DNA of 64,000 bases, from assembly GCA_973895155.1 (NCBI GenBank), contig OZ316894.1, positions 11,339,892 through 11,403,891 on the forward strand, in the 5' to 3' direction. The notes beneath the pieces are model-generated. The model was given only the letters and a program-made list of their open reading frames with translations, was not told the origin of the DNA and searched no databases. The stretch comes from Marsupella aquatica. Its lineage: Eukaryota > Plantae > Marchantiophyta. Every line of letters starts with the position of its first letter. Position 1 is the first letter of the stretch. This document shows, piece by piece, positions 1 to 62,116 of the stretch. The translations under genes were made by a program, and so were the position numbers.

Positions 1-30
1 AGTTATTGGATGTGACGTACCCTAGTTGTA

Positions 31-3000
31 ATGGACATGACCGGGGGCGTGATTCAGGACCTACCTCCTGGGAAGTCCTCCGCATTGTCACTTGTTTGGA
101 CTCTTAATCAAGCTATCATTCCTTGGGAACGCCTGACAGACTTTAGGGATGGGGAGGGCAGAAGAGATCCTAAATTTGAGACATCTTTTTACATTAGGAC
201 TTCAAAGAAATCAGATTCTGAGAACACAGATTGGGTAGAGTATAAGATATTCTGGTGTTCTTATGGCCCGCAAGAACACAATGTCAATCTATGTGTTCCT
301 CCTCTCCAAGGAACACATCCAAAGTCAGGAATTGGGAGCAGGCCACGTCTATGCAAAAAGAACTTCAACAATCACGCAAAAAGGAATTGTCAATGTCACT
401 TCATTGCAAAGAGATTCAAGATGATCCCTGACGCTATTCAAATCACGTATAGTAATAGGTACAAACTACTTTCTGACTCAAAATGAACTTCTATGACTCT
501 GTTCTTGCGTTCCAATTTGAGTTTTCCTTACTGTTCTGCCACCATGTACTCTTCACATCATAGTAAGTTATTTGCGATATAGTGTGTGTTCTGGCATCAA
601 ACTTCACTAAAACTATGTGATGTTGTTACTGTTCTGTCACCAAACATCACTGAAATTGTGTGTGGTTATTACTGTTCTGGTTGCAGAATCCATTGCAACC
701 TTAGAGGTGACATAGTGCATGGTTCTTGGGAGCATGAAATGGGGCCGCCAACATGGGAGCCAAAGTGTAGTGTTGCTCCATGGCTGACCAACGAGTTGCA
801 AAAACACCTAGAAGACTTGTTGAGGGCAAAGTGGTCTGTCCTTGACATATATGACCTACACTGCCAGTCACAATTTGAGAGGGATGGTGATGATCGTGGC
901 CATAATGTCACTGACATGGAAGTCACACTAAGCTTTGATGGTAGAGACGACCTTTTGTCAAAACAGGACCTGCGAAACCTGAAGAGGAAAATTGACAAAG
1001 AGTTGTGGTTATGGGATGACAATGACCAAGCCTCAATGCGGAAATGGAAATGCCTTTACCCTGAAAGAGTTTTTCTTTCCCATGAGTACTTGGAGGGACC
1101 TCCAGAGCAGGAGTTCATGCTTGGACTCCAATCACCTTGGCAGCTTGCTCAAATGACAAAGTTGTCTCATGGGTCGGTCTTGACCCTGGACTCCACATTT
1201 GCAATTAACGAATATGGGGTCAGTTCTCTTGGTCCCTTTCCTACATTATCTTTTATTCATTTTTGTGATGTTATCGTGTGTTTGAATTACCGTTCTGGTT
1301 GATTTCTATGTTGAATGACATTACTGTTTTGGTTTTTTTTGTATTGACTGACATTACTGTTCTGGCATGTAACCTTAATTACATTTGTTATGATGATAGT
1401 TTCCTTTCTTTACTCTTGTTGCATTTGATGAACACCAAATGGGACTACCCATAGCGTGGTGTATACAACAGTCAGAGTCAGCAGAACATATTGGGTTGTT
1501 TTTACAAGCTATGAAAGATAGAGCCTTGTTGACCAAACCGGATTGGAGTCCAAGTTGTTTCATCATCGACTGCGCTCAGGCTGAAGTTAGTGCCTTACAA
1601 GTAGTGTTTCCTAACATCCCAATATACTTCTGTAGTTGGCATGTCAGAAGGTATGTTTGAAACCACATACCACGGACCATTCTCATGTTTAGTTATCATC
1701 ATCACTTATAGAGTCTTTCTGTTACTGTTCTACCCATTTCACTCACAGGTACTTCCATACAGGGTTTGGAAGGAGAATCTGATCAAGAAGGTTCCCAACA
1801 GAGCCAAGCTCCTAAACATGAATGATGATCTTGGAGATTTAATGTATGCTGAGACTGAGGAAGACATGCAAGCCTTGTGGCATGCCTTCAAAATTAAATA
1901 CAACTCTGAAAAGCTATTTCTAAAGTATTTTGAGGACACTTGGATGTACAGAAGAGGTATGTGGTTTGCTATTTGGGGTATGCCTGGCCATTTTAGTAAA
2001 TTCTTTGTTGTCAACATGTCCATTTGGTCTAAGGTTTTTGTATTGTATTTATATCTTGCCATGTATTTTATTTTTGCAATGTTTTTGTAGCTGTTCTGTA
2101 CTGCACAAGTTTGTGTGCCTTTGTAGCTGTTCTGTATTGCATAATATCCTGTGTCTCTGTAGTTGTGGAATACTTCAGAACTCCGCTTGGATCTCTGGTA
2201 CTTAATGTTCTGGCATGTCTTATATTCCAGCAAAGTGGATGAGGGTTGTTCGATCAATGCCCCGTGCCAACCAGAATACAAATGGTGCAATTGAAGCTTG
2301 GCATTGCACTTTGAAAAAGATGATAAGGAGAGTAATAGGGGCCATTGGAGCACGTCGCCTTGATCGGATTGTGAATGCACTTTTTCAAGTGATGCTTCCA
2401 TTCTTTTGGTACAAAATTTGGTGCAAAGCAAGGGGAAGAGTCATCAACTACAAGAAAGAGGAAATAGTCTTGAATAGTCTCCACAAGGCAGAGCATCGAA
2501 TGAAAGACCATCAGGTCTGTTTTCCTGATCCAACATTGCCCAATCAGGCAATTGTGAAAAGTTTAAAACCTCATGGGAGAGAGTATATTGTGCGCAATAT
2601 ATATTCAAACTTTCCTTCATGCTGTTGTAAGTGGGCTGATGAAGGGAACATGTGCAAGCACCAATTGAAGGCATTGCTAGTGAGAGGTTGTCAAGGTGCT
2701 GTCTTTGTTCAACAACTAGGTACCAGGTTTGGTAGCCTCATGGGTGGCATCTCACATTTGAATGCGGATGAGAACATCCTGACACCACCTGAACATGTAG
2801 AAGTAGAAGGCCAAGTCGAGCCTCATGCGGTTTGTGAAACAATGGAATCTAGCCTTCATGTTTCTGTTCTGCCTAAAGAGAACCCAGAGCGGTCCCTCAG
2901 ACAATCTGTGCAACAGATGTTTGATGAGATTTTGCTCATTGTGGAAGGGGATGCCCGTCTAATAGAGCAAGTATTCCTGGCAACACAACTTACTTTGAAC

Positions 3001-3099
3001 AAAGTGAAGAGCCAAGAACAAACTAAACACCTCTCAATGAAAGACAATATAGGTCCTGTGGATGCTTTTGTTAGGCCTATGGGTCTTACATCCAAGTGA
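31..3099 (+). CDS. MULE-type DDE transposase with SWIM zinc finger (5 exons, ~757 aa)
   Basis: GT-AG exons 31-458, 687-1218, 1400-1650, 1763-1956, 2231-3099 join in one frame (2274 nt). Motifs: WCSYGP, CQCHF, LDSTF (D), FIIDC (D), FCSWH, AIEAWH (E), SWIM CCCKWADEGNMCKH. The TGA at 3097 may be premature, since degenerate coding-like sequence continues to ~3550. Confidence 0.88.
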
Positions 3100-3780
3100 C
3101 GTCTAGGTGTTGTGGACATTTACCACGATTGGGAAGAGAGGAAGGAGGACTATGGCTTTGAGGACAACACAAACAAGAAAACAAGCAACTTCGTCTCAAA
3201 TAATTACTAATATGGTAAGTTCTATATTTTTTTGTTTGTTCCAATTTCTGTTCTGTCCTGTATGAAAAACCAAATAATTGAAGAGCGGTAACTTAGCTTG
3301 AATGGCAGGAGGAGGATGGCACAACACCATGTAAACTACCATCCAAGCGCAAAGTGGTTCGGGAATCTATCACGCAGCATCTGAGTAGGTTAGGCAAGGA
3401 ATTTAAGGACGGTAGGCGGTGACGTAGGACAGCAAATCAGTTCACTCCACCACTTCCTGCTCGTGTCATGCACCTTGGAGGTGGTGCTAGGGATGTGGAC
3501 ATAAACACCAATATTGACCTCAATGTATCCCTTCATGAGGAGGCTTCATGATAATGAAATTTGGTGCTCAGTGACCACACAACACTGCTTATTAAGAGCC
3601 TTTTAAAAGTAACTATAAGTTACCTAGCTATTGACTAAACTCATTGATCTTAGGCATACTTCACATCTTGTGTGTGCAAATAAGTGGACACTAGAATAGT
3701 CACATAAATGCAAGTGTATTTCTCATTAGTTGAATGTGAGGAGGACAATGACCGTCAAAGTCTACAAAGAATTTTCATAT

Positions 3781-4290
3781 GCCAGAACAATCACACAAAC
3801 ACGAGAAACAATCATGGGTCACAAACGCGGGGCTGCCAGAACACTAAAACAAGTGCAACAGTACCCTTATACTTGTGCAAACACGGGGTTGCCAAAAGAG
3901 TCACATGAAGATGACAGCCCTTATATTTGGGCAATCGCAGGGCTGCCAGAACAGTCACACAAACACAAAAACCCTTGTAGCTAGGCAAACACGAGGCTGC
4001 CAGAACAGTCACATGAAGATGGTAGCCCTATATCTGGGCAATCGCAGGGCTGCCAAAACAGTCACACGAACACAAAAACCCGTGTAGCTAGGAAAACACG
4101 GGGTTGCCAGAACAATCACACAAAGATGACAACCCTTATATCTGGGCAATTGCAGGGCTGCCAGAACAGTCACATGAACACGTACGACAACTCTTGTATT
4201 CATTGGGCAAATGCACGGCTACCAGAACAGTCACACAAATGTATAAAATGTAGTGGTGCAAAAGAACAATTGCCAGAACAGTCACACAAA
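3781..4290. repeat. ~54-bp tandem repeat, 10 units with dimeric (~108-bp) higher order
   Basis: GCCAGAACAGTCACA-type core at 3781, 3835, 3891, 3945, 3999, 4052, 4106, 4160, 4221, 4272. It lies between the 3' ends of the two MULE genes. Confidence 0.9.
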
Positions 4291-4480
4291 TTTGGCGATG
4301 TATCACGACAATTCATTGCAAGCTGGAGAGTGAATGTACAAAGAGCAGAGTGCTTTCACACTATTTGGTTTCTTTTAATGTGTAAATAACTTCATTTGCT
4401 ACTATATAGATAGTTGCCAAGAGGCAGGCATAGTTACATTGGACATGGTTCAACCATGACATTTCCATTGATATCTATGT

Positions 4481-7456
4481 CTAGTGGGCTCTATACTTCC
4501 CTGCCTGAACAGGCAAAGAATCCAATTCCAGGGGTGGGAATTTTTGGCAGTCAGTCATGGGTCCAATGGTCTCAACTGTGACATTCTTGTCTGACTGAAG
4601 CTGAAGGGCTCTAAGCTGAATTCTGGTGGTTGTTAACAAGTCCCAATGGTGAGGGGCAATGGGGATGCCATCTGGTCCAACCCAGCAATATAGAGATGGC
4701 GGCCATGGATGAGCATTGTCAATTGCCGGAAAAGGTACCGCTATCTTCCTGTAGAGCATAACAGAAAGTGTAATTAGCAAAGTCCTCTTGCCTACGTCAT
4801 ACCTATATTCAGAGGGAGAGAATGGTTGGCAAGGCACTGTTACCTTGTGTGGTAAACCCATAGGAAAACTTGGAGTTGTGTGTAGGACTTCCGCCTCTTT
4901 GCGTGTAGTGGTAGCCAGACTTGTTTGCCATTTTTGGTTGATATATTGTAGCTTTCAATGAAGGGGATGACCTGCCCATCACTACCAACTATAGAATTGG
5001 GCAAAGCGGGGACAACACGCAGTAAATTTTCTGCTGCATGGGTTAGCAGGAGGCCTAATTCAGCCTTCCACCTGATCATACCCCATGACTCATCGGAACT
5101 TGGTGGTGTGATGGTCGGGAGCAATCCTACCAGAACAGTGACGAGAACAATAGTAAGTTGAATTCATTCCACAAATCCACAGAAAATGTCGTAAGTAAAA
5201 GTGAAATGACCATCAGTCCTCCCTGAAGTCCTCTTATCTTACCTCCAATAGTGGCAAGAACCCTGAACTTCTCTGGGGTTTTTGTCCTTGATCCCTTTTT
5301 CCTGGTTGTTGGCTTCTTCTTGAGCCTTTTTTTCTCTACGGAAGGAGTACCCTGCAACACAAAACAGTAATCCATAAAGAGTCAAAATTGCCTATCATGT
5401 ATATGAACAGGAGCAAACAAAATTAAAATTGACAATGCCCCTAAATTTGAATGACATTGCAAGTCATAGCGACTGAACTGCAATTAACTTAGGGTGTTAG
5501 CACACTGAACTTACTACACATAACCAGCTTACTACACATAAGAAATTGAATTGAAATAAAGAGTGTTACCAGACAAAATTGAAATAAATTATACAGTGCT
5601 AGCAAGTGCCCATACCTTAGTAGTAGACGGCACATTGGTGGCTTGTGTGTTTTCAATATCCTCTGAATGCTCTGTACTAGTGTGTACTCCAGAAGTTTCA
5701 CTGCCTCCGTCTGGTTCTTGCTCTTTTGTGCCTCCACCTTCATTTTCGTAGGATTCTTGATCATCTGGGAATCTAGTTTCATTTTCAATGTAGTCTGCTT
5801 GTTCAGTGGCTTATTCGGAGCCTGATTCAGTGCCTTGGTCTCTTGCTTCGTTGCCTTCATGTTCAAAGGCGGACTCTTCATTGTTGGCTTGATTTTTGGC
5901 ATTCATTCTACAGGACTTCTTGTTCTTCTTCATCACCAGTACCTCAGGAGTGTTTCTCTCCTTCATGACTATCTTCATGTGAAGGCTCTGTTCCATGGCT
6001 GATAGTGTCGGGGTCTTCTTCCGTAGCTTCCAAGACTTCCTTGTCCGCCACTTCCTACCGACCAAAACAGCAATAAAAACAAACAAGTATGAATTGTCGG
6101 AAGGGAAAGCTTGCAAACCAGAACAACAATAGAAACAAACAAGTATGAATTTTCAAAAGAGAAAGCTTGCAAACCAGAACAGCAATAGAAACAAACAAGT
6201 GTGAATTTTCAAAAGAGAAAAGCTTGCAAACCAGAAGAACAATAAAAACAAACAAGTACAAATTGTCGAAAGAGAAAGCTTGTGAAATGGTACGTCAGCA
6301 ACAACCATCTTTTTTTGTTTCTTCCTCTGGGTGGGTTTGTCATTGTTACGAGCTTCCCTTCTTTTTGCTCTTTCTTCTCGGTCAGGTTGAACTTCTGCCT
6401 GCTGCTCCTTTGCATGCATTGCTTTTTTCTTGCTCTTGGATGTAGGCTTTGTTGGGGGGTTTTCTGTTTCACGAGATGGCTTCCCCTTAGCCTTCTGGTT
6501 CTGGTTATGTTTCTTTTTTGGCTTCTGTATGGGTTTTTCTATTACCTTTCGTGAGTGGAAGACATACTTCTCAGTTTGAAAATTGGTTTGCTGCAAGTTG
6601 CATTCAGGCATTCCATCATCGCTGCTCCAATCTTTGAGTTCACATTCCGGCAAACAGGCCTAACATGCAATCATTTGAAAATTCAGATCACAAGAAAGTT
6701 ATGGCAGAATAGAGACACAAACAAACAATTAATCATGTATGAGGCAGAGCAATTTGGTAAGCGACAAACCTTAGCACGCATCTCCTCAGGATCAATGTCA
6801 GGACTATGCTTATTCCAAAATGCCACTGTGTTGTCCCTAACACTAGACAATGTGCTTGTGAAGGCAGCCAATCGCCTCCAGTGTTGGTACCTTTCTGTTG
6901 CCTTCTGAACTATCCATTTGGTTTCATCCCCCTCATGGTTGATCTTCAAATTATGTGCCCAACGTAACCACCATGTCAACTTCTGCCTCTTTTGCTTCCA
7001 CACCTGTCCACGAAATGACCCAAGTGTTGATTCTCTATTATGTTCAATCGCTACTGTACTTGGTGGATTCTTGAACATTTGCATGCCAGAACAGTGAACA
7101 TGACACAAAACATCACATAAATGCTGTCATGGCAGAACAATCACATATAATGCAAATAAAGTTACACACCTTTGTCGGGCTGAGGTCTTCGGACGACCTT
7201 TCTTACATTCTCCTGGGTTCATGCGATGTAAGGATCGCATGTGATCCAGGAAGGAGGTTCTTCGGATGAAATGTGTACAACTACCATCAGTCATCACCTT
7301 GCAAACATAACCAGATCTTGAAGTTCTGAGAAAGGAAGGGTTTTTCTGCCGGACCCAATGCACATTCTCTTGTGCCTCAGGAAATTGTGCCCATACTTCA
7401 GGTGGTGGGACAGGCAACTTGCTTTTCCTAGCCTGACTTGAAAATGACCGAGGCAT
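4481..7456 (-). pseudogene. MULE accessory gene (C2H2-like finger + AT-hook-like motif, acidic middle, unknown C-terminal domain), disrupted
   Basis: Putative exons ~7456-7170, ~7071-6770, ~6659-6294, ~6055-5617, ~5351-5212, ~5126-4481 with GT/AG borders. Motifs CKVMTDGSC-x12-H-x4-H and KKGRPK. The acidic exon has stops and a frameshift, and there is a frame change near 4860. Confidence 0.6.
6062..6285. repeat. 56-bp tandem repeat x4 (in an intron of the accessory gene)
   Basis: AAACAAGT anchor at 6081, 6137, 6193, 6250; units carry ACCAGAAC-like sites. Confidence 0.88.
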
Positions 7457-7977
7457 GGTCACAACACTATAAAATCGTCGAGATCACACTCACTGCAGAA
7501 TGAGCAACTTGCTGTCATAAATCCAGAACGGTAACACAAACAAAGAGTTTAGAGTGTAACTTTTATGAAAAATGATGATAACATGGCGCAAGTTGCAAGC
7601 TTAGTGGGGAACCTTCCGGCCCCGATTCCGCCACAAAATCTAATCGAGAAGAGCATGGGGATGGTTGTCTAAAAAAAACACACCGTCGTCGTCATTGCAA
7701 GGGGCAGTGTTGCGCCAATCTGCTTTCCAGCCGCACAATTGTCGAAACCCAAAAGAGCTGAAGTCTATGGCAAATTGAGGAAGTTACTGTCACAAAACCA
7801 GAACAGTAACACAAATAGAGAGTTTAGGTTTATGAAGAACGACGATTGCATAGTGCAAGTTGCAAGCTCAAACAGGGGACCTTATGCCCCACGCCACAAA
7901 ATGCAAGTAGCATGCATAAGAAACACAGACTGACAGACTTTCTCATCAAACACAGAGTCTCTGCAGGTATTTGTGAA

Positions 7978-8109
7978 GCGTTCACAAGGAATGATAGCTT
8001 GATTAAGAGTCCAAACAAGTGACAATGCGGAGAACTTCCCAGGAGGTGGGTCCTGAATCACGCCCCCTGTCATGTCCATTACAACTAGGGTACGTCACAT
8101 CCAATAACT
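7978..8109 (-). repeat. Inner part of the right inverted repeat; reverse copy of positions 1-132 including the first ~33 transposase codons
   Basis: ORF 7882-8079(-) begins MDMTGGVIQDPPPGKFSALSLVWTLNQAIIP, versus MDMTGGVIQDLPPGKSSALSLVWTLNQAIIP at 31(+). Confidence 0.92.
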
Positions 8110-11100
8110 GTGTGGGACTGGTAGAACGACTACACAAACACCATTGTTCTAACACATTTTACATGGAAAGAGATGACGGAGGCAATCTGTCCCACGATCA
8201 ATGCTCCTCAATAGTGATAGGGTCCACACATGCAAAAAGTGCACTGCAACGTTGCCAGTAACCTGATCTTGATCTTCTCTTGCTTGGGGCAGAGGCGCCA
8301 AGTACAGATTGCTGAACACTACTGAGGTGCTTAGTGAAACAAGAACCTAATACGAAAGACATTGTTAACATAATCCGTGGTGAAGGAAAAGTAAAAACAT
8401 ATATGCACAGTGGAAAAACACTGACAATCTTAACTGAAAAGGCCGAATCGCATTTGATAGTGCGGATGGGAGACAAGAAACAAGAGCTCAAGACTCTGCA
8501 AACTTCGGGCAGAACGCTCGCGCGCGCTAGAAAATGATATGACGACAAAACGCACAACGCTGCACATTGAGTATTTCCAGCAGCGGGACCACAATGATAA
8601 CAACTGAGAATGAGAACATGTGACAAAAATAGAGGAGGATTGGAGGCCGGGAAGCGTGTCCCACGCCCTAAAGGTCGTGAAATTTGAAATGGACGGAAAT
8701 TTTTAGTTCGTCGCCGATCGAGACTAATATATTTCAAGTGCGCCAGAACGATGATTGACGGACGCACGAGCTTGCGGGCAACAGCATTGGGATTAGTGAC
8801 GGGCAAGGTACGAGGCCCCAAGAAGACTGGGGAACTTTAATGCGATGTTTGATTTAACCCGATGTACTAACATCAGTTCATGTGTGTGAAAATAATATTA
8901 AAATAAAATTCATATGACTCGCACGAATTGTCAGTAAACCTGGAACTTGGACAATCTTCAATTAATATTAGTTACACTAAGTACTACTGGTGAGCAATGT
9001 AAAAGTGCCCCGCAGGGGAGTACCCCTATTGAGAGTACGGTCCCTAGAAACCTAGAGAGGATCAATATCGACCCTGCTGTGAGAGCCGTACCTCCAGTAC
9101 CGGCACTACAGGACAACGAGAGGATCAATATCGACCTGGCTGTGCGGTTCAGAGCTCCCGACTGCCAGGTGTGCCATCTGTACGTGGAGGGTTCAGAGAG
9201 GAGCGATGGATCGCAGCCCGTGCGTCACCGTATCTGCCATGTGGCAAGTGGCACCCTCTCATGAATCGTCAACCGCTAGACTGTCCGCTGTGCCAGTTGG
9301 AAGATTGCGTTCTCTGGTTCACAATTAAAGGGGCTCCGCTCACCTTATTTTATAAGGGGTTTTTCTTTTTGGCTAGCGTGTGACAAACTTCACCTTGCGT
9401 GATAAGTGCCTTGTGTCCCACGGAGAAGATGCCAAGAATATTATTTATCACATTTTACTAAACTGATTTTTTGTGACAGATACACATTCATGTCACCTTG
9501 TGCGAAAGAAAAATATTAAGAATATTATTTATTCTAGTCTTATCATAATGATTCCTGACAAGCAGATCTCCCTAGATTGAATTCAAGGCGGCTAGATTCT
9601 TGCTACTTAGGTTTGTGACTAACTGAAGTTTAGCCAGTACCGGTGAAGTCTATTTAGAGCAATAGAATCCAGTTAAATTTAGGAATGGTAACAAGCGCTC
9701 AATCAGCCGCTTTCTATGCCCTCCAGTCCACCACCGAATCCGAGGGGGGATAATTCCGCTGTGGGAAACCAATAAATCAGGTAGGGTGACTCAGGTAACA
9801 GTAATTATCCCAGATTATTTCCTGGCCATTCAGTGGTGCCCATCCAAGTGGATCTCCGACTTGTATTATTACGTACATCAAAACTCCAGCTACTCCCCTC
9901 ATTTGGCATCCCCCCATTTGGCACGCGCTTTTTACTTTCCTTTTCCTATGTTTTTTCTTTTTTGTCTAGAACGGCAAATTGCATTGGAAATATTATTAAA
10001 AGGCAAACATTTTTTTAATTTTTTATTTTTTATAATAAAAATTTTTATTACTGAAAAGGCCCCAAGAACCCCACAGCCAGGACCAGTGGGGGGCCAAGGG
10101 GCGAAACCCAGCAGCAAGCAAAAGACCACAGGCAAAGGCCGCAGCAACACCGGTGCCCAATAAACAAAGCCCCTGGGCCCTAGGTCAAGACTTTAGGGCG
10201 GGAATGAGTCCTAGTCAACCATCTACTAATGGTCAAAAAATGAATCCACCTACAGTCCCACATCCAGTGCACAAAATGGCATCCCAATGGATGCGCCTCC
10301 AATGAGAGAAAGCAAAGGTAATAGGTTCAGAATAATCCCACCTAGTATACTTACTATTGTGGTAGATAAACATTACTTTTAGTTTTACTCTGAACTAAAT
10401 ATACCCAACGGAAAGGTCCTACACAGGATTAGAACATGAGGTACGGTACACCACACCAAATTCATCCCTCACTAAAACATTGGTGGTGAGCTTGCACTAA
10501 GAAAGCCCTTTTAAACTGGGAAGCTTTCAGGAATTCTGTAAATGAAAAGGAATTTTCTCCACGTTTTAGACAATGATATTAACACGATCTCTTATTGCTA
10601 GGTCAAGTACCATAATATTGTGGCATCACCTAATAGTGATTGGTATCGGCGGTACACATAGTGTCAATATCTACAACAGTCGTGAGATATGGGAAACATT
10701 TACCCTAAAAATGGCACTACTATATGGCAATTTATATAACCCTCCCAGAGTGCCCGATGCTCTTTTGATGATTAGATTTTTTTAGTTATTTTACGAGCTT
10801 GCTTTTAGTTCCTTTCTATTTGAAATTGTCTTTCAGTTTTCACAAGTTTTAGTCATTCCTTTATCTGGAAATTTAGATTTTCATTTACCTTTTTTGGTTT
10901 TGAGAGAATTTTTAGAATAATTTTTAAATCCAGAAACTTTGTAGCTGGTTGAACCAGGGACCCTTCCTTTTACACACCAGTGACTAGCCCAACAATATGT
11001 AGACTTTTCTTGTCTGATACTAATGGGCTCACAACACTCTAGTATGTATCACAGAGAAGATAGAAGGATGGGCAATTGTAACAAAATAAGATCTATTTTC

Positions 11101-24249: not shown

Positions 24250-26300
24250 AGTTCATGCCCCTCCTTGACTTCTTCCCCTTGGCCTTCTCCTTGCCCTTGC
24301 GTGCTCTTTGAGGGGGACCGGGGCCTCCTCCTCCTCTTGGTCTCCCTCCTCATCCTCATCCCCATCACCATCCCCATTCCCATCCCCTACCGCACTACCA
24401 CTCGCAGCACCAGTGGAGTGTGCTGATGCAAATGACAGCTCTCCAGTGCTAGTTGGCCTGACTCGACTAGCAGGAGCAGTGCTCCCCTCCCCTGTCCCCT
24501 CCTCATCCTCATCGCTACTATCACCCTCAGTATGGGAGTCACCATCATCATCCGGTCTCTGTTACATTAGCAAACCAGCCATGCATTAGTCATATAGAAC
24601 CTTACAATTCAGTGAATGACATAAGAGGGAATTTTTCATAAATGCAATCAACACATTAACCTGAAAATTAACGGTCACCAATAATTGATCAACTTGCTGA
24701 AAGAGATGCTCCTTCCCATGTTTATGGCCCACCTCCATCTCAGCCGCTGTGATCTTCCTCTTGTACCTCTTGTACTAACCAAAACAAAAACCGACACAAT
24801 TGGTCAAAACCAAGCAATAACGGCAAGCCAAAATGCCTTAAAACAATTAGAGGGGTTAATTAGGTGCTGGTGGGGTTGGGGCTTAGGTTGGGGGTGGTTT
24901 TACAAGGGTGGCATGGGGGCTTACAACCCTCAAACAACACTTGAACGTTTTGAAATTTTCAAAAATTCAATTTTTTTGAATTTTCCAAGGCTCCAGCTTT
25001 GCAAACGTAAGGGAAAACTAGGTTGCAAAAGTGATTGAGATGGGCGTGGCTTTGCAAGGGCATTGCAAAACTATTTCCAAAAAAGTGAATAACAAGGTTT
25101 GCAAAGCGACGCGCATCGCCAATGCTTTGCAAACTCTTTTATGACGAAAAGTCGAAAGGGAAGAAAATGTACGTGACCTAATCTAACACAACAACTCCAA
25201 TTGGAAGTACTTGGTGCCACAGCAGAAAAGAGTTGGGGCATTGCAGGTGTGTTGGAATAGAAATTGGAGGAGTAAGAAGTCAAGAGAGGAGAGGGCGATG
25301 CACTCACAAATGCTGCTTTGAGGCCGGGGAGGCCACCTTGACCAAGCCTGTGGGTGATGTTGGGCTTGTCTCGGACTCTCTCAGCTGCCTTCAGGAACTT
25401 GTTGGGTGGATCTCCCACTTCTGCTACAACCTGCTGCAATTGGGCCACCTTCTGCTCCATCATCTTCAGGTCACGGTCAGACTTCCCGGGCCTTTGTCAA
25501 CTTCTCTGTAAATTCATTCAGGACCCTGGCTGCTTTCAACTTCACCTTCGTGGCGTAGAAGGCCTACCAGATATCTTCTGAGAACTGTAGCAGCCTCCCC
25601 AAATTCCTGTACTCAGGACTCCAGATCTCTCAGGTGAGCTCTGATCTTCATCCTGTCATGGTATCGTGCTTGTGACATGGAATTTGAGATTTTATCAGTA
25701 AGCCATTGTGAATCCATCTCTCCTCCATTTTGGAATGCATCTTTCACCTGATTGATCACTCGCTTCTGCTCTGCCTTGGAGAGAGTGCTCGACTCGACTC
25801 CTCTTGCAAAATTTGTGGACACAATGTGTCTGATTGTGCTCTTGGCCCCATTGTAAGCAAGCTCTGTGGGAATTCCCTCATCCTCTAATGTGATCAGAGG
25901 CAGCTTCCTCCTTGCCTCCTCCTTCTTTCTCTGCTCCTCCCTCTGTTTCCTGATCAAGTCTCTCTCATCTTTCCTCCTCTTCTTTTCCAAGGCTTGAGGG
26001 GAGAGTACTCCAGCCTGAGCTCTCTCATCCCTCTTTCGCTTCTTCTCAGCGGCCTTCTGCTTGGCTGTCCTCCTTTCTTCCTCCTCTCTTGCTGCTTTCC
26101 CTGCACTGAGACCAGATTGCAAGGCCTGGCCCAATAATGCACTCAACCATGCAAGCCCTGCTGGAGAGGTGAAATCAATCTTACTCAACTGCGCAACCGA
26201 GAAATGGTCATCCACCATCTTTGGAAGTCGATCCTCCTCCTCTTGGTTGCCTCCGCTGCTGCCAAAAGCTCCTCCATCACCTCGATCCAGTTCCCCCTCC
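24250..26300 (-). pseudogene. CACTA accessory TnpA/PTTA (Transposase_24)-like gene, disrupted
   Basis: ORF 25613-26539 (charged coiled coil) continues through a frameshift and stops into ...NITHRLGQGG (PTTA-like H-x-x-G motif), then a small exon at ~24660-24775 and an acidic last exon at ~24570-24250. Start codon uncertain. Confidence 0.6.
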
Positions 26301-26619
26301 GCTTGCCATCGCTCCTCCCTTGCCTGTGCAGCTCTCTCCCAAGGCCCGCAAGAAATGGATCTGCCTTGTCCGCGCTCGGCAAATGATAAGGACAATAGAG
26401 TTAGGGTTTGCGAAGTCATTCTCATCGCAGTTTGTGGTGTTTCTACCTTCTCAACCAGCTTTGCAAACGCTATCTTTGCAAAGAATACAACTTCACAAAC
26501 GTGTTTGCTATTGGGTTTGCAAAAACCCCCATCTCGCATGTGTATTTTCTGTGAGCAGGGATACTAAGAGGGGTAATAAACATTAAATTTGGTACAAGTA
26601 ATTCATTGGATGTGATCAT

Positions 26620-26960
26620 ATAAGGGTTGGGGGGTTAAAAGTGCTGACATTGGAGGGTAAGAGGAGGGGTCTTATGTTACGGCTTTTGGGTTTGGCCTGG
26701 TTGGGGGGGAGTGTTATTTCAGAAGGTTGGGGCTTATATTGGAAGGTAAGAGGCGGGGATTTATATTTTGGCTTTTGGGTTTTGCCTGGTTGGGAGGGTT
26801 TTTATTTTATGAAGGTTGGGCTTAGATTGGAGGGTAATATGAGGTGTTTTATGTTTTGGGTTTGGCCAGGGGATTTCATTTTATGAATGTTTGGCTTATA
26901 TGTATTGGAGTAAGAGGAGGTGTTTTATATTTTGGCTTTTTGGGTTTAGGCCAACTTAGG
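26620..26960. repeat. Degenerate ~70-bp tandem repeat x~5 between the divergent CACTA genes
   Basis: Recurring GGTTGGGCTTA.ATTGGA.GGTAAGAGG..G...TTTATATTTTGGCTTTTGGGTTT. Confidence 0.7.
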
Positions 26961-27556: not shown

Positions 27557-28740
27557 ATGCCCTACATGCAATGTAATGTGGCAGTGGATATGTCCTCCTC
27601 CTCTGAACTATCCAGTAGTGAGTACTCCTCCTCCGATGATGTACCCCCTCCTCCTCAACCTGAGGTTACCGGTCCTCGTGGTCCTCCCTGGAGACTTTGT
27701 GAGTGCACCAGATGTGTGGGCCAAATTTCTCAAAAATCTTATATGTGTGCTCAACATATTGAGAGGTATGGACGTCACAGGGGTCTTACTCCGGGGGCTT
27801 CTTCATCCCATATGGTACGTGGATTTCAATTGTTTGCCATTTTTTCCTCATATTTCATAAGTGAATCAATGTTTACACATATGTTTTTTGTGGGTTTTTG
27901 CATGGAATAGGGATCCAGTATGCGTAGACCGGTGACACCACCACCCTATGTCCCATCACAAGGAGTTTTAGATGCTATAGGCAATGCACTTTCACAAGCC
28001 TTGGGTGTAGGGATGAGTACCAATCATGGGACTAAAGAGGAACAGCCTCATGTGCCCACTGAGACAGGAAGACCCCGGTCCAGGTCCCAGTCCAAGAGGA
28101 GGCCACAAGCACCCAATGACCCATCAAGAACACTAGTTGAGGGTAGGTGGGGCATTTGTTCATTCACTAGCAAGTGTGCCTCTATCATCAAAGATTGGGA
28201 TCCTATGACTCTTGGCTTGCCTTATTTTCCCAGTTATGATGAGGAGATTGTGGTTTGGGGTAGACGTTGGATTGTGAAAGCTTCCACACTTGTAGAGAGA
28301 CACGGATATGGAGTATTTTCTTGTGAGGATATCATCATGGATGATGGGAGTGGGTCAAGTATTTGTGGTAGAGAGGGTCCTACTTTGCTCCCATACGGTG
28401 GACCCATCTACAAGAGAAGACACTGGAACATGATCCTTGCACAACATCCTGAGTGGAAAACATATGCCCTAGAGATGGATACTTTTCATGGTAGCACTAG
28501 AAGGTATAGTGAGCAGCGGGTGATAGACGTGATCCTGTACGTAATGGGAATATTGTTGGCTTTATAAATAGTACTGTGGGGACTCGACCCAAGCGTAGGG
28601 CCAATTGTCAGTGGGTTTTTACTGATGGCCCAATGCTGGCACCATATGAAACGACATATCATAAGGACCATTGCTTAGTTCTTGCCACTAGGACTATTAG
28701 AGCTGAAGATGAATTATTCACACACTATGAGTGGGATTAG
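27557..28740 (+). pseudogene. CACTA-encoded SET-domain protein (lysine methyltransferase-like) with an N-terminal transposase-associated Zn motif; one 1-bp frameshift
   Basis: Exon 1 27557-27814 (CECTRC..C..HI..YG), intron GTACGT..AATAG, exon 2 27911-28740. SET motifs: VKASTL..HGYGVF, LPYGG, ID[G]DPVRNGNIVGFINS, NCQW, LVLATRTIRAEDELFTHYEW*. Frameshift at ~28529. Confidence 0.8.
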
Positions 28741-28988
28741 GGAGCCATGTCATACATCCTCTTGTACCTTGTGTGGACTTCACACTTATCATTATATACA
28801 TGTCCTCTGGCCTCATTTTGGAGTAGTATAATTTTGGTGTGGCCCTTCACTTAAGTTCTTAATGTGAATGCATGCATTCAATCCTTAAAACTGATTGTTA
28901 ATTTGTGTTGAATGAATGGTCTGAAGTCTGTTTTTGTTGTACCTGGTGAAATATACATCAAGAGGTTTTTTGGTTGTGATTTGTGTAG

Positions 28989-31900
28989 AATGTGCAACCA
29001 TCTCAACAAATGTTACCACGAAGGTTGAGAGCAACATATCGGGAGATGGGCATGCCAGAAGAGGGAGAACCATCAGAGAGTGATTCCTCATCAAGTAATG
29101 ATGTAAATGATCATGGTGATGAGGAAGCAACACCTCAGACTGATGACCAGGTCATGCATGACCAGGACAGAGCCATGGATGACTTCATGGTTGATTGATT
29201 TGGTGCTGCTGTTGAAGATGGTGTCCCTGACATTAGTGTTGAAGAAGCTGCCCCCCAAAATGACCCATGACCACAACATACTCCAGAGGGACAACAACAA
29301 TGGAAGGAGGTTGAGGAACATGCCCGGACACCTATCTTTGAGGGTGCTCGGTTGAGTCATTTGTCAGCCATATTGGGGTTGTTGAACATTCAGGCCAAAC
29401 ATAAGGCAAGCAATTCTATGTTATCAGACATATTTGAATATTGTCATGACTTGATGTTACCCTTGGAGAATGTGTTGCCTGGAACTTGGAAGGATGCAAA
29501 GAAGATTCTCTCATCCATTGGCATGGATTACCATATCATTCATGTCTGTGTGAATGATTGCATATTATTTCATGGGGACAAAGCCCATATGACAGAATGC
29601 ACAGTATGTCATGAGCCACGGTATGACCCAAACATGCTAACTGGGAAGGCGCCAAGAAAAGCAGTTCGTTGGTTCCCCATCATTCTTCGCTTGTTGCACA
29701 TGTATAGATGTTCTGACTTGGCCGAGTTGATGGTATGGCACAAGAAGCATTGTTCGGAGCCCGGTGTGATACGATTACCAGTTGACTCTCCTGCTCATAA
29801 ACATGTGGAGTCAACATGGCCAATTTCCAGCCAGATTTTGAGCGTGACCCTCTACATGTGCAACTTGGGTTGGCATCAGATGGGGTTAGCCCTCATTCAC
29901 TTGGAGGGAAGGGGAGACCTACATCAGTTTGGCCAGTGGTTCTCATGAATAATTACAACCTTCCACCATGGTTGTCCATGAAAAAGGGCTTTTTATTGCT
30001 ATCTTTGATTATCCCAAGGCGAAAGAAGGTGACGAACATGGACACCTATTTGGCATTAGTGGTTGAGGAACTCCAAAAATTATGGGATGGAATATGGGCA
30101 TATGACAGTCGAAAGACTACAGGGGGTACCCCACGGGTTTTTAAACTAAAAGGGGTTTGTATGTGGACCATGCATGACTACCCAAGTAAGAACTATGAAA
30201 CTACAACACTTTTTTGTTTACATCCAACATGATATGATATGGATGTTATCCCCTCATTTCCATGTGCTAATTCTACATTATGTGTGTCTATATGACCAGG
30301 ATTTGGCTTTGTGAGTGGGTTGCAAACCCAAGGCTACAAGGCTTGCTCCACTTGTGGCCCAAGTCTTGGTGATATAGCCAAGTACTCATCACACCTTCAC
30401 AAGATTGTTTATCTTGGGCATACAAAGTTTCTGCCAATGGGCCATCAGATGAGGTTTGACCCACTACTATTTTCCTCCATTGATATGCCCTTTGTTGATG
30501 AGCGTGATATACCAAAGCCAACAAATTTTGCACATTGGAAAGACTTGGCTGATAGTGGCAAACCCGAAGGATCCCATGCAATTTGAGGGTAGCGGGTTGA
30601 CTAGATGGAGTATATTAACCACTTTGCCTTATTGGGGAGAGTTGAAGATCCGCCATCTATTAGACCCCATGCACATTGAGGGAAATGTGGGAAAGGCTTT
30701 GATAAAGGCTTTCTATGGAGAAAAGGACACTAACTTCAGGGAGGCTTGTGAGTATCTTGAGATGCATCGAGATGTATGGGTCACAATTGATCCTATCACA
30801 TGGATAGAACATCGACCTTCAGCCCCATGGGTGCTTCCTGTTGGCCAGAGAAGGGAGTTTAGGAATCGTATAGGAGGCATATGGTTTCCTACTGGTTATG
30901 GTGCCAATCTCTGGAAGGCCTTTCGGATGGAGGACAATCATAAGTGGCCAATGTATCTCAAGACGCATGACTATCATCGGTTATTGCAGCATATATTGCC
31001 CATGGCCATAATAGGTTTGGCAAGTTCAGAAGTGCAAGATGCCATTTGGTCATTGGGAAAACTATTGAGATGGGTATGTTCTAAGGAGATGTACTGTGAA
31101 GAGATCCCTGGAATGGAGGTACTGGCAGCAGAGGTGGTATGCAAGTTAGAAAAGGCCCTTCCTCCTTCCTTTTTTGATTGCCAAGTGCATTTACTCGTTC
31201 ATCTTGTTCATGAGGTGGCCATTGCTGGTCCTGTGCATTGTCGGTGGATGTATTGGTTGGAACGATACATGGCAGTATTAAAGGGTTATGTATGTAACCG
31301 GGCACGGGTTGAGGGAAGCATGGCTACAGGATACTTGGCAGTAGAGAGTATGTTCTATTGCAGTAACATATTGGCCACAATTGATTGTACCTCTCCCCGT
31401 ACTTGGGTAGAGGCTCCAGAGGGAAGATGAGGAGGATCGTTTAACAGGTGCTATCAAAACCCGCATGTTGACACCAGTGGAGTTGAAACAACTAACCACA
31501 TTCATGTTGAGTAACAACACTATCATGGAAGAATGAAGGGATTTCTATGAGGATGCCAAAAGTACTAGTAGAAGACCAAGGATCTTTCCAACGTACCATG
31601 ACTACATGAAGGAGAAGTTGGTTGAGGTGGATGACATGGTAGCGAGGGGAGAGAATGTATTACATTTTCCAGCTATCACAGATGACGTCCGTACCATTAT
31701 TCATGGTCCCTTGAGAATGGTTACAACAAGGACGGCAATGTGGACACAAGGGCGGGCACAAGGGAGACATTTCAGGTTATTTCCAAGTACCTTAGTAACC
31801 TTTCATCTATGGTGATTTTAATTTATGTGTAATACAAACACATATATTGAAGAGACAATTTTTTGGCATGTGATATTAATTGTTATATATTTATGCCTAT

Positions 31901-41400: not shown

Positions 41401-41796
41401 CAACAGTTGGTAGACAGAACATAGAGTGAAGCACAGACTTCGAGGTAATCACAGAAGGAGGAGTGCCAGCCTTGCATTGAGCAGGTGGGTGTTGTTTTGC
41501 AGTAGAGAGCGAGCAAGAGAGATGTTGTAGTTGTTGCTCTGTACAAAAGAAGAACGGCAGGGAACGAGAGAGAGAACGAGAGAGAGGCTTTGGAGAATCA
41601 GAGGACCGTGCATTGCTTGCTGGGTCTCTAGGGGGAAATCGTTTTTCAGCGAGTTACATGGTGCAGGGGCGAGGACGGAAAATCTGGTGTCTGTGGATTG
41701 CAGACAGAGAGAGTGAGAGAGGTCCGAGGAGGAGAAAGTATCGATATTATTGTGGTTTGACTACTGCTGCTAGTACTACGACGACGTCGAGAAATC

Positions 41797-42669
41797 ATGC
41801 CCCCGATGGATTCGTCGGCGTCACTATACTTCGATAGCTCCTGGATGATGGATGACACCTACCCGGATTTATTCGATGAGAAAGGGGAAACTGACCTCTT
41901 CTCAAGACAGGCCATGATCGCCACCAGTTTCGCAAACCCGAGCAACAGTAGCGAATCGTGTATGTCGAAAGTTGAGAAGGTGGTAGGCGGCGTTTGTGTC
42001 AGCCCTTCGCAGTGTATGGCTGATATCAATGCTGCGATAAGTACTGCTGGCTGCTTCTCAACGAATCCCTTGCTCTACGACGCTCTCCCAGCCCCGAGCA
42101 ACAGCGGCGAATCGTGTATGTCTAAAGTTGAGCAGGTATGCGGCGTCGTTGGTGGCAGCACTCAGCAGCACATTATGGCCGCTATCAATGTCGCGCTAAA
42201 TTCTGGTGCGGCAGACAAATCGATTCCTGCATTGAGGGAAAGTGCTATGGCGGAGCAATTTGCTCAGACCGAAATGTGGAAGGCTCGGGGTCCCGGAGGA
42301 TTTGATATGAACCTTGTGGCGAACAGTAGGCCGAAACGACGTAATGTGAAAATTTCCAAGGATCCGCAAAGTGTGGCTGCCAGGCATCGGAGAGAGAGGA
42401 TTAGTGACAGGATTCGTATTCTTCAAAGGCTGGTACCCGGCGGCACGAAGATGGACACTGCTTCCATGCTGGACGAGGCCATTCATTACGTGAAGTTTCT
42501 CAAGGCACAATTACATAGCCTTGAGAAGGCCAGCAATACACACAGTACTAGTTTCGATTCTCGCCTGGCTTTCGCGGCAAGCTCATTGTACCGTAATGGT
42601 AGCATGGCAGGGGTACCTCACAGCACGCTGGGGATTGATTACTCACCAATGCAAAAGCACGTACAGTAG
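41797..42669 (+). CDS. HEC: HECATE/INDEHISCENT-like bHLH transcription factor (subfamily VIIIb), intronless, 290 aa
   Basis: [59 protein letters not shown] is the VIIIb signature. Start is ATG 41797 or 41806. Confidence 0.95.
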
Positions 42670-54638: not shown

Positions 54639-56982
54639 CTAATCCCCCTGTGGTTTATCTTGAATCTGCAGACTGATAATATAGGCAACCAGGCCCACAT
54701 ATGGAACAAATCGAAGAACTTCTACAGTCTCCCTACTCTCTACCTTCAGGTTGTCAAGATTGTCACCGATGAGCCATGGTTGGAAGAAGGTATAAAGAGC
54801 AATATCCCAAAGAAAAGCATATGCAAGGCGTTCACTGCCTACATAGTTAAGAAAGTAATCCCATCGCTCTCCAAGAGCACCGAAACCACCCTCGGGTCGA
54901 CCAATGAAACCCCACACAACGGAAATCAAGCCGACTGCTGCACCAGCAATACCAATAGCGTATGCTCCCTTTGTCACTCCTCTGCTCAAACCTTCAAGTT
55001 TGATCCCCCGACGCCGTGGAGCTTTGCCCCTCTCTGCTGGCGAGCTATTTAGCCTGATAGCCATGTATGGTGCAAGAACAGCTGCAAAAAGAGAATGAAG
55101 GGTAGTAAGCCGACACCTGCTCGAGAAGGCCAAAGGAATACCTTGAAAACCAGGCCCGTGACCAAAGCTATGTGGTCACAGTAACTGAACCTTAAAACCA
55201 AATTACTCATGTAACAACAAAAATATGGCTCCAACCAAACTAAAACTGTATAAAGTATATAGGCATTATGGCTTCCATCCGACAATACATTCTGGGCCCA
55301 GTTTCGGGCCCCCATCACAATAAGGAGCTAAAGTTAGACAAAAACAATTAGGACAATTAGCAAATCTGCCTCCTTGCAAGACTGGGAAGTGACGTTCCCT
55401 ACTGTTTGTCAGGAACATTTGAATTATCCACAGGGTTTCCAAAGACCCTCCATATCTATCTCGCTTCCTGTCCGTAAACAGCAACGGTGCAAACAAAAGC
55501 GTCCAGCCGATTACAATGTTGAACAGAGCCTCTGCTGTCTGCAAACCAGTCCAAAACCGTTGGTGACATGTACTTGTGGTCATAGAGGTTGGACAGGCTC
55601 AAGCGGCTCTGTGCAGCAAATCACTCTGAGTAAGTGTCAAGATGTTAAGAGAGATTACTTACTGGATGCAGCACGGGAGCTGCCAAACCATGAAATCCTG
55701 CTGCTCTGTCCAATTCGACACCAGGAACGTTTTAAGCACTCTGGGGCATTACGAAGTTGTAGCATTTTGGGTGTTTGGCTACAACTGAAAAGACAATATT
55801 TTGTCCATCACTTCTAACAATAGCAGCAGTCCTGAGCAACCTGCCTGATAGCTTACACTCCTACATGTGATCATCAACATACTTGACAAAAACATGCAGG
55901 CAATGCACCCGTTGAAATTAGCTTAATTCTTCTACAATGAATCACTCATGCCGAATTGAACTGTCGCAGATTTGGTTAGTACCAAGGTGATTAATCTGTC
56001 AGCTCCGGTGCATTTAACCATAGGTATCCCCGAAGGAAGACTCCAAAGGATGTAAAGCAAGTTGTCATATAAAAAGGAAAGCAATTCCGAGACGAAAATG
56101 CCTCGAATTGTCCTAACATCATTTTCGTTACGCGTAGTGCAAGACAAAAACTATCATGGAAAGGGAGCAACAGTGACGCACCAGCATTAGTCAAGCTGCT
56201 TGCTAGCGGAAGCACGAAAAAAAAATTGAGCGATAGATCGATGAGCATTTGGATTGTTGATGGGCTGATGGCCCAGACTGGATCACCCTACATAGAGTAG
56301 TAGCCTCATTAGACGGCCATCTGATATTCTTTCGCTCCTCTCAGTAACCCAGTTATGTGTGTCTGCATAGGGAGTAGTACGGTCTAGCGATTCATCCTGA
56401 CAAACCATACATCCCAACGGAGCACAGGTACAACAACTCTCCTCTGGTGATTCGGTAAGAGATTCTCACAGGAGCGTATGGCAGAATAAAGAGCCATATG
56501 ACGTAGACGACAGCCACCACCCAGCATCCAATTTGCCCTACTCCTCTTGCCAACGGTCCACCCTTCTCATCAAGTCCAATGCCAGCTTCTGGACCTTTAT
56601 CAGCATCCTGCTCAGAGTCCAGTTTAACTTTGCAAATAAAAGGAGATACTATCCTGTCGTTACCCCGCCCTTGCCTCGGCCCCAGACATGCTTTTGATGC
56701 ACTTGCAACCCTAAACCTACTATAGATCTCGCCCAAGTGTGGATTTCCAAATCCTTCTCTTCTCGCCGATAGTTTCGGACTCTGCCTCAAGAGGGTGTTT
56801 GTAGGAACATTGTTTTGAAGATAAGGAAGATGTCTGCCCCGAGGTATTCCGCAATGGCAACCGGGCCACCCGGATATGTTTGAAATAATTGAGCGATTGA
56901 CATTCCCGGGGAGGTAGAATGGCGATATAGACCACGGTGCCTTTGAAGGAGAAGAACCGCTCAAGTGGCACCTTAGCTCCAT
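54639..56982 (-). CDS. Conserved uncharacterised multi-pass membrane protein, probably plastid-targeted (5 exons)
   Basis: Exons 56982-56470, 56287-56182, ~55702-55665, ~55538-55403, ~55081-54639 give LPYAP|GDPVWAI..LSLNFFFVLP..|APVLHP|TAEALFN..GW..LFAPLLFTD..MFLTN|..LAPYMAIR..SERLAYAF.WDI. The N-terminus is Ser/Arg-rich and transit-like. Confidence 0.85.
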
Positions 56983-58535
56983 CAATTACCTTCAGTTGCG
57001 TGAACTGATGCTAAATTACGAAAATGTATAGCACTGAGGACGAGCTGCCGGTAAGCAGGGGCCTCCCTGCTATGCAAAATCTCTCTTCAATCTCGGCCCA
57101 TCGACATATGGGTCCTAGATTCAGCCACGCCTCCCCTCCCCGCCTTTCTCACAGAATGCTGCTTCGCTTAAATGGTAAGTGAAGATGTTCTCTTGATGAA
57201 TTCCAACGACGGTGGCCCCGCGGTTCGCAGTCACGGACAGACAGTTCAACCGAGCAGTAAAAGATCTCAATTCCACCTCGACGACAGAATCCACGGACTC
57301 TTCGTGGCCATTGGCATCCCACAAATTGTCACTAGCAGATTCATTCTGCTAAAGACGAACTTGGTTGTCGGATGGAAAACACAATGGTTCAGCTGGGCAA
57401 GCAACTACCAGTGCACTAGGAGCCCCACCAAACTCTAATTGTGGGCTGCCTGAAATTGTCACTACTAGGGCGTGAATTCGTTCCTACTTGTCTCCCATTC
57501 TACGGCTAATGTGGCTGATTTGTTGGCAAACTTGTCGGTAACCTCCAGCTCTGCTACTGTGGCTGTTACACATTATCTGGTTCAAATATTAGAAGGGCTT
57601 ATTAGTATAATTAACCCTTCCGGAGCTTTGCATTCACGGATAAATCAACACCTGGCTTATCCAGAGTTCGTGGTCCAGCTCAATTGCAAAACTAGCGGAG
57701 TTGTAATACTAAGAAATGGGGCACTGGGGTTTCACATTATAAACCTCAATTCGGCATGAGTATCATTTGTGAAGGGCAACGTGTAACCCTTGTTTCTACT
57801 GTTGATGGATGATCTAAGGCAGGAATTACTGACTTGGGTTGTCGCTTGAAAATGAATGGATACTTCACCGCGATGGCATATTCTTAAATATAGACGAACT
57901 TTCTGTCCACGCAAAAATGCTCATCTCTGGCTTTCAAGAATAGGTCAATTCTAAGGAATTGATCGTAAAGTGTTGGGTATTGCCTGCTGTCTTTGAACTA
58001 CTAGATTGCTGTCGGCATATTCTTCGAAGCTGTCCCTCAATCATTTTCTCCTTCGGGACATCCATACGTACCTTTCGTGATCCGCGTTCATAGCAGTTTG
58101 ATTCCTAGACAGGTCCACTTGGTGATGCGGGAGGTCAACTAAGTGCTACCATTGAATATTGTGCAAATCAAAACCTCCTACACATCCAGCTTCGCTGAAA
58201 TTGGTCTCCGGATTTCAGGATTAAAATCTTTCGTTCGTTTCTTGATAAGCCTATTCAACTCAATTCTTGATGATTAGTTTTGCAGAACCCTTGTGGCAGC
58301 CATCTCTTGACCACAACTTAAAATAAAGGAGAAATACGCAATCGCGATAGTGCCCACCCCTATAGGGAATAAATGAATGACTAGATTTCTAAATGTCCAC
58401 AGATCCTCAATCGGGGAAGTGGAGAGAGAACGAAGGAATATTCATTTCTATACAAGCTTGACAGGATGAGGACTAAAAGAGCGACAGTACACAAGCAACC
58501 TGAACTGCTGCTACTGAGTGGCTCAAACACGATCA

Positions 58536-61343: not shown

Positions 61344-61408
61344 AAACTAAACTAAACTAAACTAAACTAAACTAAACTAAACTAAACTAAACTAAACTAA
61401 ACTAAACT
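61344..61408. repeat. (AAACT)13 microsatellite
   Basis: Perfect pentanucleotide run. Confidence 0.95.
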
Positions 61409-62116
61409 GGACTTGCTCTATCCCTAACTCAAAATCCCCTAAAGCTCAATCCAATCTAATTATCAAGTTTTTTGGTGTTACCTTGGTTCTGAAGACTAGT
61501 TAGGTTATTAGGTCTCATAGGAATTTTTGGTGTAGATTTTTGTTTCAATCTGCCTGAGACAAAATGTATCTTTTGTCTTATTCAATTTTTTGAAATTGTT
61601 TTTTCCCCCTCTATTGAGCCTGGATAGACCAAGGGTCTGTTCTTCCTATCCCCATGCATGGACTGTGTAAAGTCATCAGTCAATTTACACGGGAAAAAGT
61701 GACCAACTTCTTTTGGAAGGACTCTTCACTTTTGCTAAGGATACCTCAAGTAGTTTTCCCAAACACCCCAACCAATTGTAAACAGTTAGTTTTTGGCAAC
61801 CTTGTGCATTTATTTTGAACTGGGATTTACTAGATTGCCTATCCACACAAATAGGATGTTTAGATCTGTCATTCTTTTTGTCCAGCATAGATTTTTAATT
61901 TAAATAGAGAGGTAGTTCAGTTTACTACAAAAGTTGTCATAGGTCCCTGAAATTTGCAAGTACACTTGTCCCATGCAGCTGGCAATTGTTGAAGGTGGAA
62001 CAAGGAAATTGTGGGTGCTAAACTGATATAGCAAAGGGTACAGAAATTAATTTGCAGTAGAGAATGGATCATATTCTGTCCGGAGGCAGCCACTAATTAT
62101 TGAGCAGCGGTGTTGC

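Follow-up and report, generated by a model that had tools for sequence, protein, structure and literature searches.

An oriented short motif throughout a two-gene Mutator-like element of the liverwort Marsupella aquatica: a possible docking site for the element's second protein

A 64,000-nucleotide stretch of the genome of the liverwort Marsupella aquatica (contig OZ316894.1, positions 11,339,892 to 11,403,891; hereafter the window) carries at its left side a Mutator-like element (MULE) with two convergent genes, one for a transposase and one for an accessory protein. A short motif recurs through the introns of both genes and through the DNA between and beside them. An earlier note on this stretch had likened the arrangement to the VANDAL/VANC anti-silencing elements of Arabidopsis, and had proposed that the accessory protein binds the motif in an analogous, probably independent system. 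In the literature considered, sequence-specific anti-silencing by transposon proteins (VANC, TnpA, MURA and AtMu1) is described in flowering plants only.

RESULTS AND DISCUSSION

A decayed two-gene MULE

The element is a MULE, a decayed copy of a multicopy family. The models of both genes (Table 1) are based on splice signals, homology and variant copies. The transposase has a Pfam MULE match (PF10551) above the cut-off, at E 1.7e-7, and a SWIM match below it, at E 0.048. Its segments are 40-76% identical in tblastn to two MULE proteins, P0001 and P0002, from the liverworts Calypogeia fissa and Riccia sorocarpa, the only transposase relatives found. The gene is broken here by a stop at codon 758, where contigs of three public runs carry another letter. 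Each run contributes 152 to 695 contig pieces that match the element, with several levels of identity; in run X1, long contigs from within the element have a depth of 82-97 versus 11.6 for the unique flank, which, with depth as a rough guide, suggests several close copies.

At the transposase start, positions 1-138 are a 96% inverted copy of 7972-8109, in a match cut by the window start. Contigs of public runs end near 8840-8849, where depth falls, and are sparse past about 8850. Summed contig depth is raised over most of 8107-8834, and an opposite-strand contig joint, 2391/8106, is present in three runs. We regard a terminal inverted repeat (TIR) of about 880 bp, with one end visible in the window, as probable; within it would lie the promoter and the initial ~36 codons of the transposase. 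At the right end, its outer part is CpG-rich (observed/expected 1.23). Through the inverted repeat, the initiation codon of the transposase and some 36 codons are also present in the accessory gene's 5' region and would form an upstream open reading frame (ORF) there (7972-8109, - strand); small insertions in other copies, at 7908, 7912 and 7718, could shift its frame. Rfam gave no matches in 1-10000.

Table 1 Features of the element, in window coordinates
Feature	Position	Strand	Basis
MULE (DDE, SWIM) transposase gene	31..3552	+	Pfam, tblastn, splice sites
Transposase modelled exons	31-458, 687-1218, 1400-1650, 1763-1956, 2231-3214, 3309-3552	+	
Five motif copies, transposase intron 1; three within 43-bp tandem array (587-680)	499..680	+	
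33-bp tandem array, three motif copies, transposase intron 2	1286..1365	+	
Motif variant, transposase intron 3	1725..1732	+	
36-bp tandem array (two copies) and variant at 2205, transposase intron 4	2086..2212	+	
Motif, transposase intron 5	3248..3255	+	
54/107-bp tandem array, between the stop codons of the two genes; nine copies at <=1 mismatch and one decayed	3780..4290	-	
Accessory gene, seven modelled exons	4481..7456	-	
Accessory exons	7456-7170, 7070-6770, 6659-6294, 6054-5616, 5351-5243, 5126-4844, 4748-4481	-	
Single motif copies near acceptors of accessory introns 6, 5 and 4 (4757, 5131, 5360)	4757..5367	-	
Accessory exon 6, conserved domain of no named family	4844..5126	-	Four unnamed relatives
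56-bp tandem array, accessory intron 3; three motif copies and one decayed	6061..6282	-	
Motif copies in accessory introns 2 and 1 (6705, 7087, 7133)	6705..7140	-	
Predicted zinc finger, C-x7-C-x11-H-x4-H	7226..7303	-	Sequence pattern, AlphaFold2
Duplicated ~105-bp block 5' of accessory start, with a motif in each copy (7524, 7799)	7495..7868	-	
Probable long right TIR; inner 138 bp match window 1-138; element end near 8849	7972..8849	-	

The motif is dense, non-coding and oriented

Positions 1-8950 contain 17 exact copies of the 8-mer CTGTTCTG, and the remaining 55 kb of the window one, at 40238, an enrichment of about 100-fold. Eight of these copies are on the + strand (531, 629, 672, 1357, 2091, 2127, 2864 and 3248) and nine on the - strand (3947, 4001, 4162, 4223, 4274, 5131, 6175, 7087 and 7799). 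The 7-mer TGTTCTG is found 25 times in 1-8950 versus seven times elsewhere. Sixteen of the 17 exact copies are non-coding, as are 35 of the 42 matches that allow one mismatch (33 distinct sites). Thus the earlier note's description, some 25 copies, almost all non-coding and rare in the rest of the window, holds up, and every position that it listed is present within 1 base.

We compared these counts with dinucleotide shuffles of the non-coding pieces (n=300). Exact copies numbered 16 versus a shuffle mean of 0.24 (maximum 3), and one-mismatch copies 35 versus a mean of 5.0 (maximum 12), with p-values that overstate the enrichment because copies within an array are not independent. Seven of the 11 modelled introns of the element contain an exact copy (shuffle mean 0.12), and all 11 contain a copy with at most one mismatch (mean 2.3, maximum 6). 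Moreover, the word stands out from background introns, a comparison that had been proposed as a check: 24 matches fall in 1812 nt of element introns versus none in 1964 nt of host introns, the latter being four introns of two genes at 54.6-60.3 kb, placed by eye and two of them with approximate ends.

The copies are also oriented. All 35 non-coding one-mismatch copies lie in the sense strand of the gene that hosts them, versus two of the seven coding ones. Polarity switches between 3248 and 3783, that is, between the stop codons of the convergent genes; the reversal that had been reported for the 54-bp array and the accessory gene is therefore confirmed. Intronic copies lie 4 to 180 nt from the acceptor. 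Two of them, the one-mismatch words at 5360 and 4757, lie 8 nt ahead of the acceptor and may simply belong to a normal 3' splice site.

The only exact coding copy (2864) is in a poorly conserved linker of transposase exon 5, near an apparent intron of L001, a distant transposase relative from a metagenome scan; a short unmodelled intron around this copy is possible. In a diverged copy of the element (run X2, loose end before 1757), intron 3 differs in sequence, yet it starts with the 3' part of the motif, GTTCTG, a hint that the word persists through intron turnover.

One word in otherwise unrelated repeats

Tandem Repeats Finder reports six arrays in the element. The motif is in the repeat unit of five of them, with periods of 33, 36, 43, 54/107 and 56; the other is a short AT-rich array without it. 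The motif is absent from the 11 longer arrays tested elsewhere in the window, a set that excludes microsatellites and very short arrays. When arrays are collapsed, 17 motif clusters remain, with a shared consensus of about GT(T/G)ACTGTTCTGGCAT and a core of ~14 bases. Flank identity among the clusters averages 32% versus 27% expected, and a few pairs reach 55-58%. Because the core is kept while the flanks are near background, a single word has been retained in otherwise unrelated repeats. The largest array, with the 54/107-bp period, sits outside every modelled intron, downstream of both stop codons. Neighboring copies are spaced at 32, 55, 43, 33.5, 36, 53.6, 56 and 46 (n=8 independent spacings), values with a weak tendency toward whole helical turns (p about 0.02-0.03, post hoc).

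Copy comparison, with 40 of 114 contig differences listed, places other copies nearer the consensus at three of the four differing motif positions (6710, 7140 and 8751). Differences within the inverted repeat may be differences between its left and right arms. C-to-T decay in 1-7971 affects 8 of 278 CG, 12 of 600 CHG and 8 of 2533 CHH sites, counted on 43 listed transitions in which this copy has T or A and others C or G, a biased subset. The present copy was probably methylated after insertion, which weighs neither way on protection of active copies. Two related measures were set aside. The CHG observed/expected ratio is about 1.0 in the element versus 0.64 in a CACTA transposase region of the window; it was not used as a sign of long-term protection because age confounds it and many other 2-kb bins are equally high. 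The count of intronic CAG/CTG was rejected as circular, since the motif itself supplies many CTG.

The specificity of the motif for this family was assessed against the 55 kb of the window and against the two loci from the metagenome scan, a 1.4-kb transposase end (L001) and a distant locus (L002), both without the motif. Its absence across the 1.4 kb of L001 is uninformative about the binder. L002, an 18-kb contig, has a distant MULE transposase and is AT-rich, with many CTAC/GTAG-type repeats; it is possibly another motif-rich element or microsatellite.

The accessory gene

The accessory gene is broken in this copy by stops and a frame change in exon 4 and at the acceptor of intron 1, which is canonical in other copies. 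Exons 5-7 join without a stop into 219 residues. The product would comprise a predicted C2H2-like finger, a helical Trp-rich segment, Lys-rich and acidic stretches, and a conserved C-terminal domain. With exon 6 as query, HMMER returned 14 proteins, four of them with single-stretch matches (E 1.6e-15 to 6.4e-4, about 28-48% identity). These four are unnamed fragments on short contigs, and their similarity stops at the last residue of the exon, as expected from an intron in common. Since the relatives break off at the same intron boundary, sequence comparison indicates that the accessory gene is a real, conserved gene family. The other 10 matches were dropped as multi-stretch repeat proteins (two inspected).

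Further searches gave the family no name. Neither exon 6 nor exons 1-2 had a relative in word-seeded protein searches; Pfam and NCBIfam returned no family for the seven exons, nor one of note for the exon 6 relatives; and no sequence match in the PDB was better than E 0.3. Neither DUF1985 nor DUF287, which are MAIN/PMD-related, matched in Pfam at E<=1 in the seven exons or the four relatives, in an exon-wise scan that loses sensitivity. The AlphaFold2 single-sequence model of exon 1 is strand-strand-helix at the finger, with local confidence (pLDDT) of about 57-68 and a mean of 52. Structure searches with it (no match in Foldseek; best Z 3.3 in VIA-align) have no bearing on the fold. Thus, of the accessory zinc-finger gene that the earlier note described, the gene stands, and the finger is a sequence pattern with a low-confidence model. 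The exon 2 model is two long helices and uninformative, with Atlas matches below 0.9.

Two other assignments were rejected. A nitrilase (CN_hydrolase) reading of exon 6 came from an Atlas lead of 0.90; an 11-sequence hidden Markov model gave no score, and HHalign gave a probability of 0.3%, below the top shuffles, with positive controls at 77-112 bits. A Ulp1 protease reading of exon 7, made by eye, had no Pfam match.

A possible docking site for the second protein

Our favored interpretation, to which we give a probability of roughly 45%, is that the motif serves as a DNA docking site for the second protein, in a self-activation system like those of VANC and TnpA and of separate origin. Promoters in the long inverted ends would drive both genes inward. 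The second protein, through its predicted finger, basic and acidic stretches and conserved C-terminal domain, would then bind the dense motif clusters, and tandem duplication would multiply the docking sites. Bound protein would switch on related copies of the element and likely counter their silencing. On this model the intronic sites would be one-way, because the opposite strand of the motif holds two CAG words that could be mistaken for splice acceptors; a site read as DNA might thus owe its polarity to splicing alone. Precedents are the VANC targets (PMC5735166) and the TnpA motif clusters (bioRxiv 10.64898/2026.08.24.746577).

Several observations weigh against docking by the second protein. 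The polarity of non-coding copies tracks the transcripts without exception, and most intronic copies (16 of 22) fall in the 3' half of their intron, five copies within 8 nt of the acceptor. Phasing at 10.5 bp around phase zero is not significant (p 0.32). Runs X2 and X4, in their main contigs, lack one perfect site (7087) through a difference at 7092, and the present copy, which shows C-to-T decay at CG and CHG sites, was apparently not protected after insertion. The predicted finger has no Pfam, PDB-sequence or fold match. The apparent long inverted ends are unlike VANDAL, and a MULE transposase can do such a job by itself, as AtMu1 shows.

The first of these points are also what a signal in RNA would produce. 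In that case a U/G-rich intronic word, recognized by the accessory protein or by a host factor, would control the splicing or stability of both transcripts; copies would be expected in sense, switching between the stop codons, and the motif is indeed in every modelled intron with its 3'-half bias. In contrast, the largest array lies beyond both stop codons, the host introns of the same window are without the word, and the distance to the acceptor varies widely. Avoidance of CAG on the sense strand, moreover, could account for intronic polarity without RNA binding. We consider an RNA signal unlikely on balance, and if it were correct, the element would carry an element-wide splicing code, which would be likewise unusual.

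It is distinctly unlikely that the transposase is the binder, through its N-terminal Cys/His domain and in self-activation or end pairing, with a separate role for the second gene. The AtMu1c transposase alone hypomethylates and activates cognate copies (bioRxiv 10.64898/2026.08.24.746577), and MURA acts likewise at Mu TIRs. Here, two motif variants (8744 and 8510) lie 98 and 332 bp in from the probable right end, and the polarity can also be described as inward-pointing from each end. However, AtMu1c and MURA bind termini, whereas the best copies of this element are internal and those two terminal ones have two mismatches.

We give a similarly low rating to a neutral history, in which a single ancestral repeat or intron seed gave rise to the copies, which slippage and conversion then spread without function. 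Many copies are inside tandem arrays, a few cluster pairs share more than half of their flanks, and sites do decay. Against this stand the mean flank identity near background with the core kept, the five distinct repeat periods, and the presence of the word in both genes and in the intergenic region. If the history were neutral, the motif would be a curiosity. Least probable is that a host transcription factor binds the word and that the element gathered sites for tissue or stress expression: any factor would select dense clusters of a short word, and with its variable second base the motif may resemble a MYB-type core, but the word is nearly absent from the 55 kb of flanking host and transposon DNA.

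Relation to known self-recognition systems

The VANC targets of Arabidopsis are short, non-coding, dense motifs in the same orientation, borne by tandem repeats (Hosaka et al. 2017, PMC5735166), and the sequence-level features of such targets, a dense, oriented, non-coding motif with tandem-repeat carriage, are found here. The likeness to VANDAL21/VANC21 and VANDAL6/VANC6 includes a MULE with an accessory gene and an 8-9-base motif in the non-coding DNA of introns, intergenic regions and termini (PMC5735166; Sasaki et al. 2023, PMC10398659), at high density in one orientation and on unrelated, dynamic tandem repeats. In contrast, the motif is unrelated to VANDAL's YAGTATTAY or AGTTGTCC, and no DUF1985, DUF287 or PMD match was found in the accessory exons or their relatives here. 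According to PMC13547354, VANC is restricted to dicots and derives from MAIN. The TIRs of VANDALs are degenerate (PMC10398659), whereas the present element appears, from the one end visible, to have long inverted ends, which would make the layout MuDR-like rather than VANDAL-like. Judged by sequence, the element resembles VANDAL/VANC in layout and is not a member. The proposed VANDAL/VANC-like architecture stands for the motif pattern and apparently not for the ends. As to an analogous, independent system, the lack of a detectable VANC-family domain fits independence, while polarity and 3'-half bias fit an RNA or splicing signal as well as an analogous mechanism.

Maize MuDR, with mudrA and mudrB, likewise pairs a transposase with a second gene. 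The MuDR genes are convergent, with repeats between them. MuDR TIRs hold promoters (PMC6446971). The inverted repeat here differs in that it probably measures ~880 bp and spans the first ~36 transposase codons, and we found no description in the literature of all-intron motif arrays for MuDR.

TnpA of Spm/CACTA and the AtMu1 transposase bind clustered, family-specific motifs and activate cognate copies (bioRxiv 10.64898/2026.08.24.746577). In sequence, the element shares with them the combination of an element-encoded protein and a clustered family-specific motif. It differs in that their motifs and effects are terminal, that TnpA has tandem helix-turn-helix domains of a different superfamily, and that AtMu1 has no accessory gene. 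Among the titles and abstract starts of the literature on liverwort and moss MULE accessory genes and on Marchantia anti-silencing, we found no such element.

If the docking mechanism holds, the element represents a known type of transposon self-recognition in a new variant. More tentatively, liverwort MULEs may possess their own sequence-specific anti-silencing system, independent of VANC and TnpA, with an unnamed zinc-finger family, a new conserved C-terminal domain and a private motif in every intron; self-recognition by motif arrays might then be a repeated invention whose age and spread go well beyond Arabidopsis. Such a system in a bryophyte, run by an unrelated protein, would, if true, amount to convergent evolution of the strategy. 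It would also provide a defined protein-motif pair, testable in a tractable liverwort, and possibly a new tool for targeted demethylation.

Other features of the window

The remains of a CACTA/En-Spm transposase (Transposase_21, DUF4218) occupy 27900-31430 (+), near a possible accessory ORF at 25613-26563 (-) and 74-89 bp repeats at 26649-26939. An intronless, CpG-rich ORF at 41761-42669 (+) encodes a bHLH transcription factor (Pfam HLH). The two host genes that served as intron controls, one with DUF7148, are at 58535-60260 (-) and 54640-56990 (-). A large 57/119-bp tandem array at 62100-63785, without the MULE motif and with no assigned gene, has ~17 units and a second block of three, and a perfect (AAACT)13 microsatellite lies at 61344-61408.

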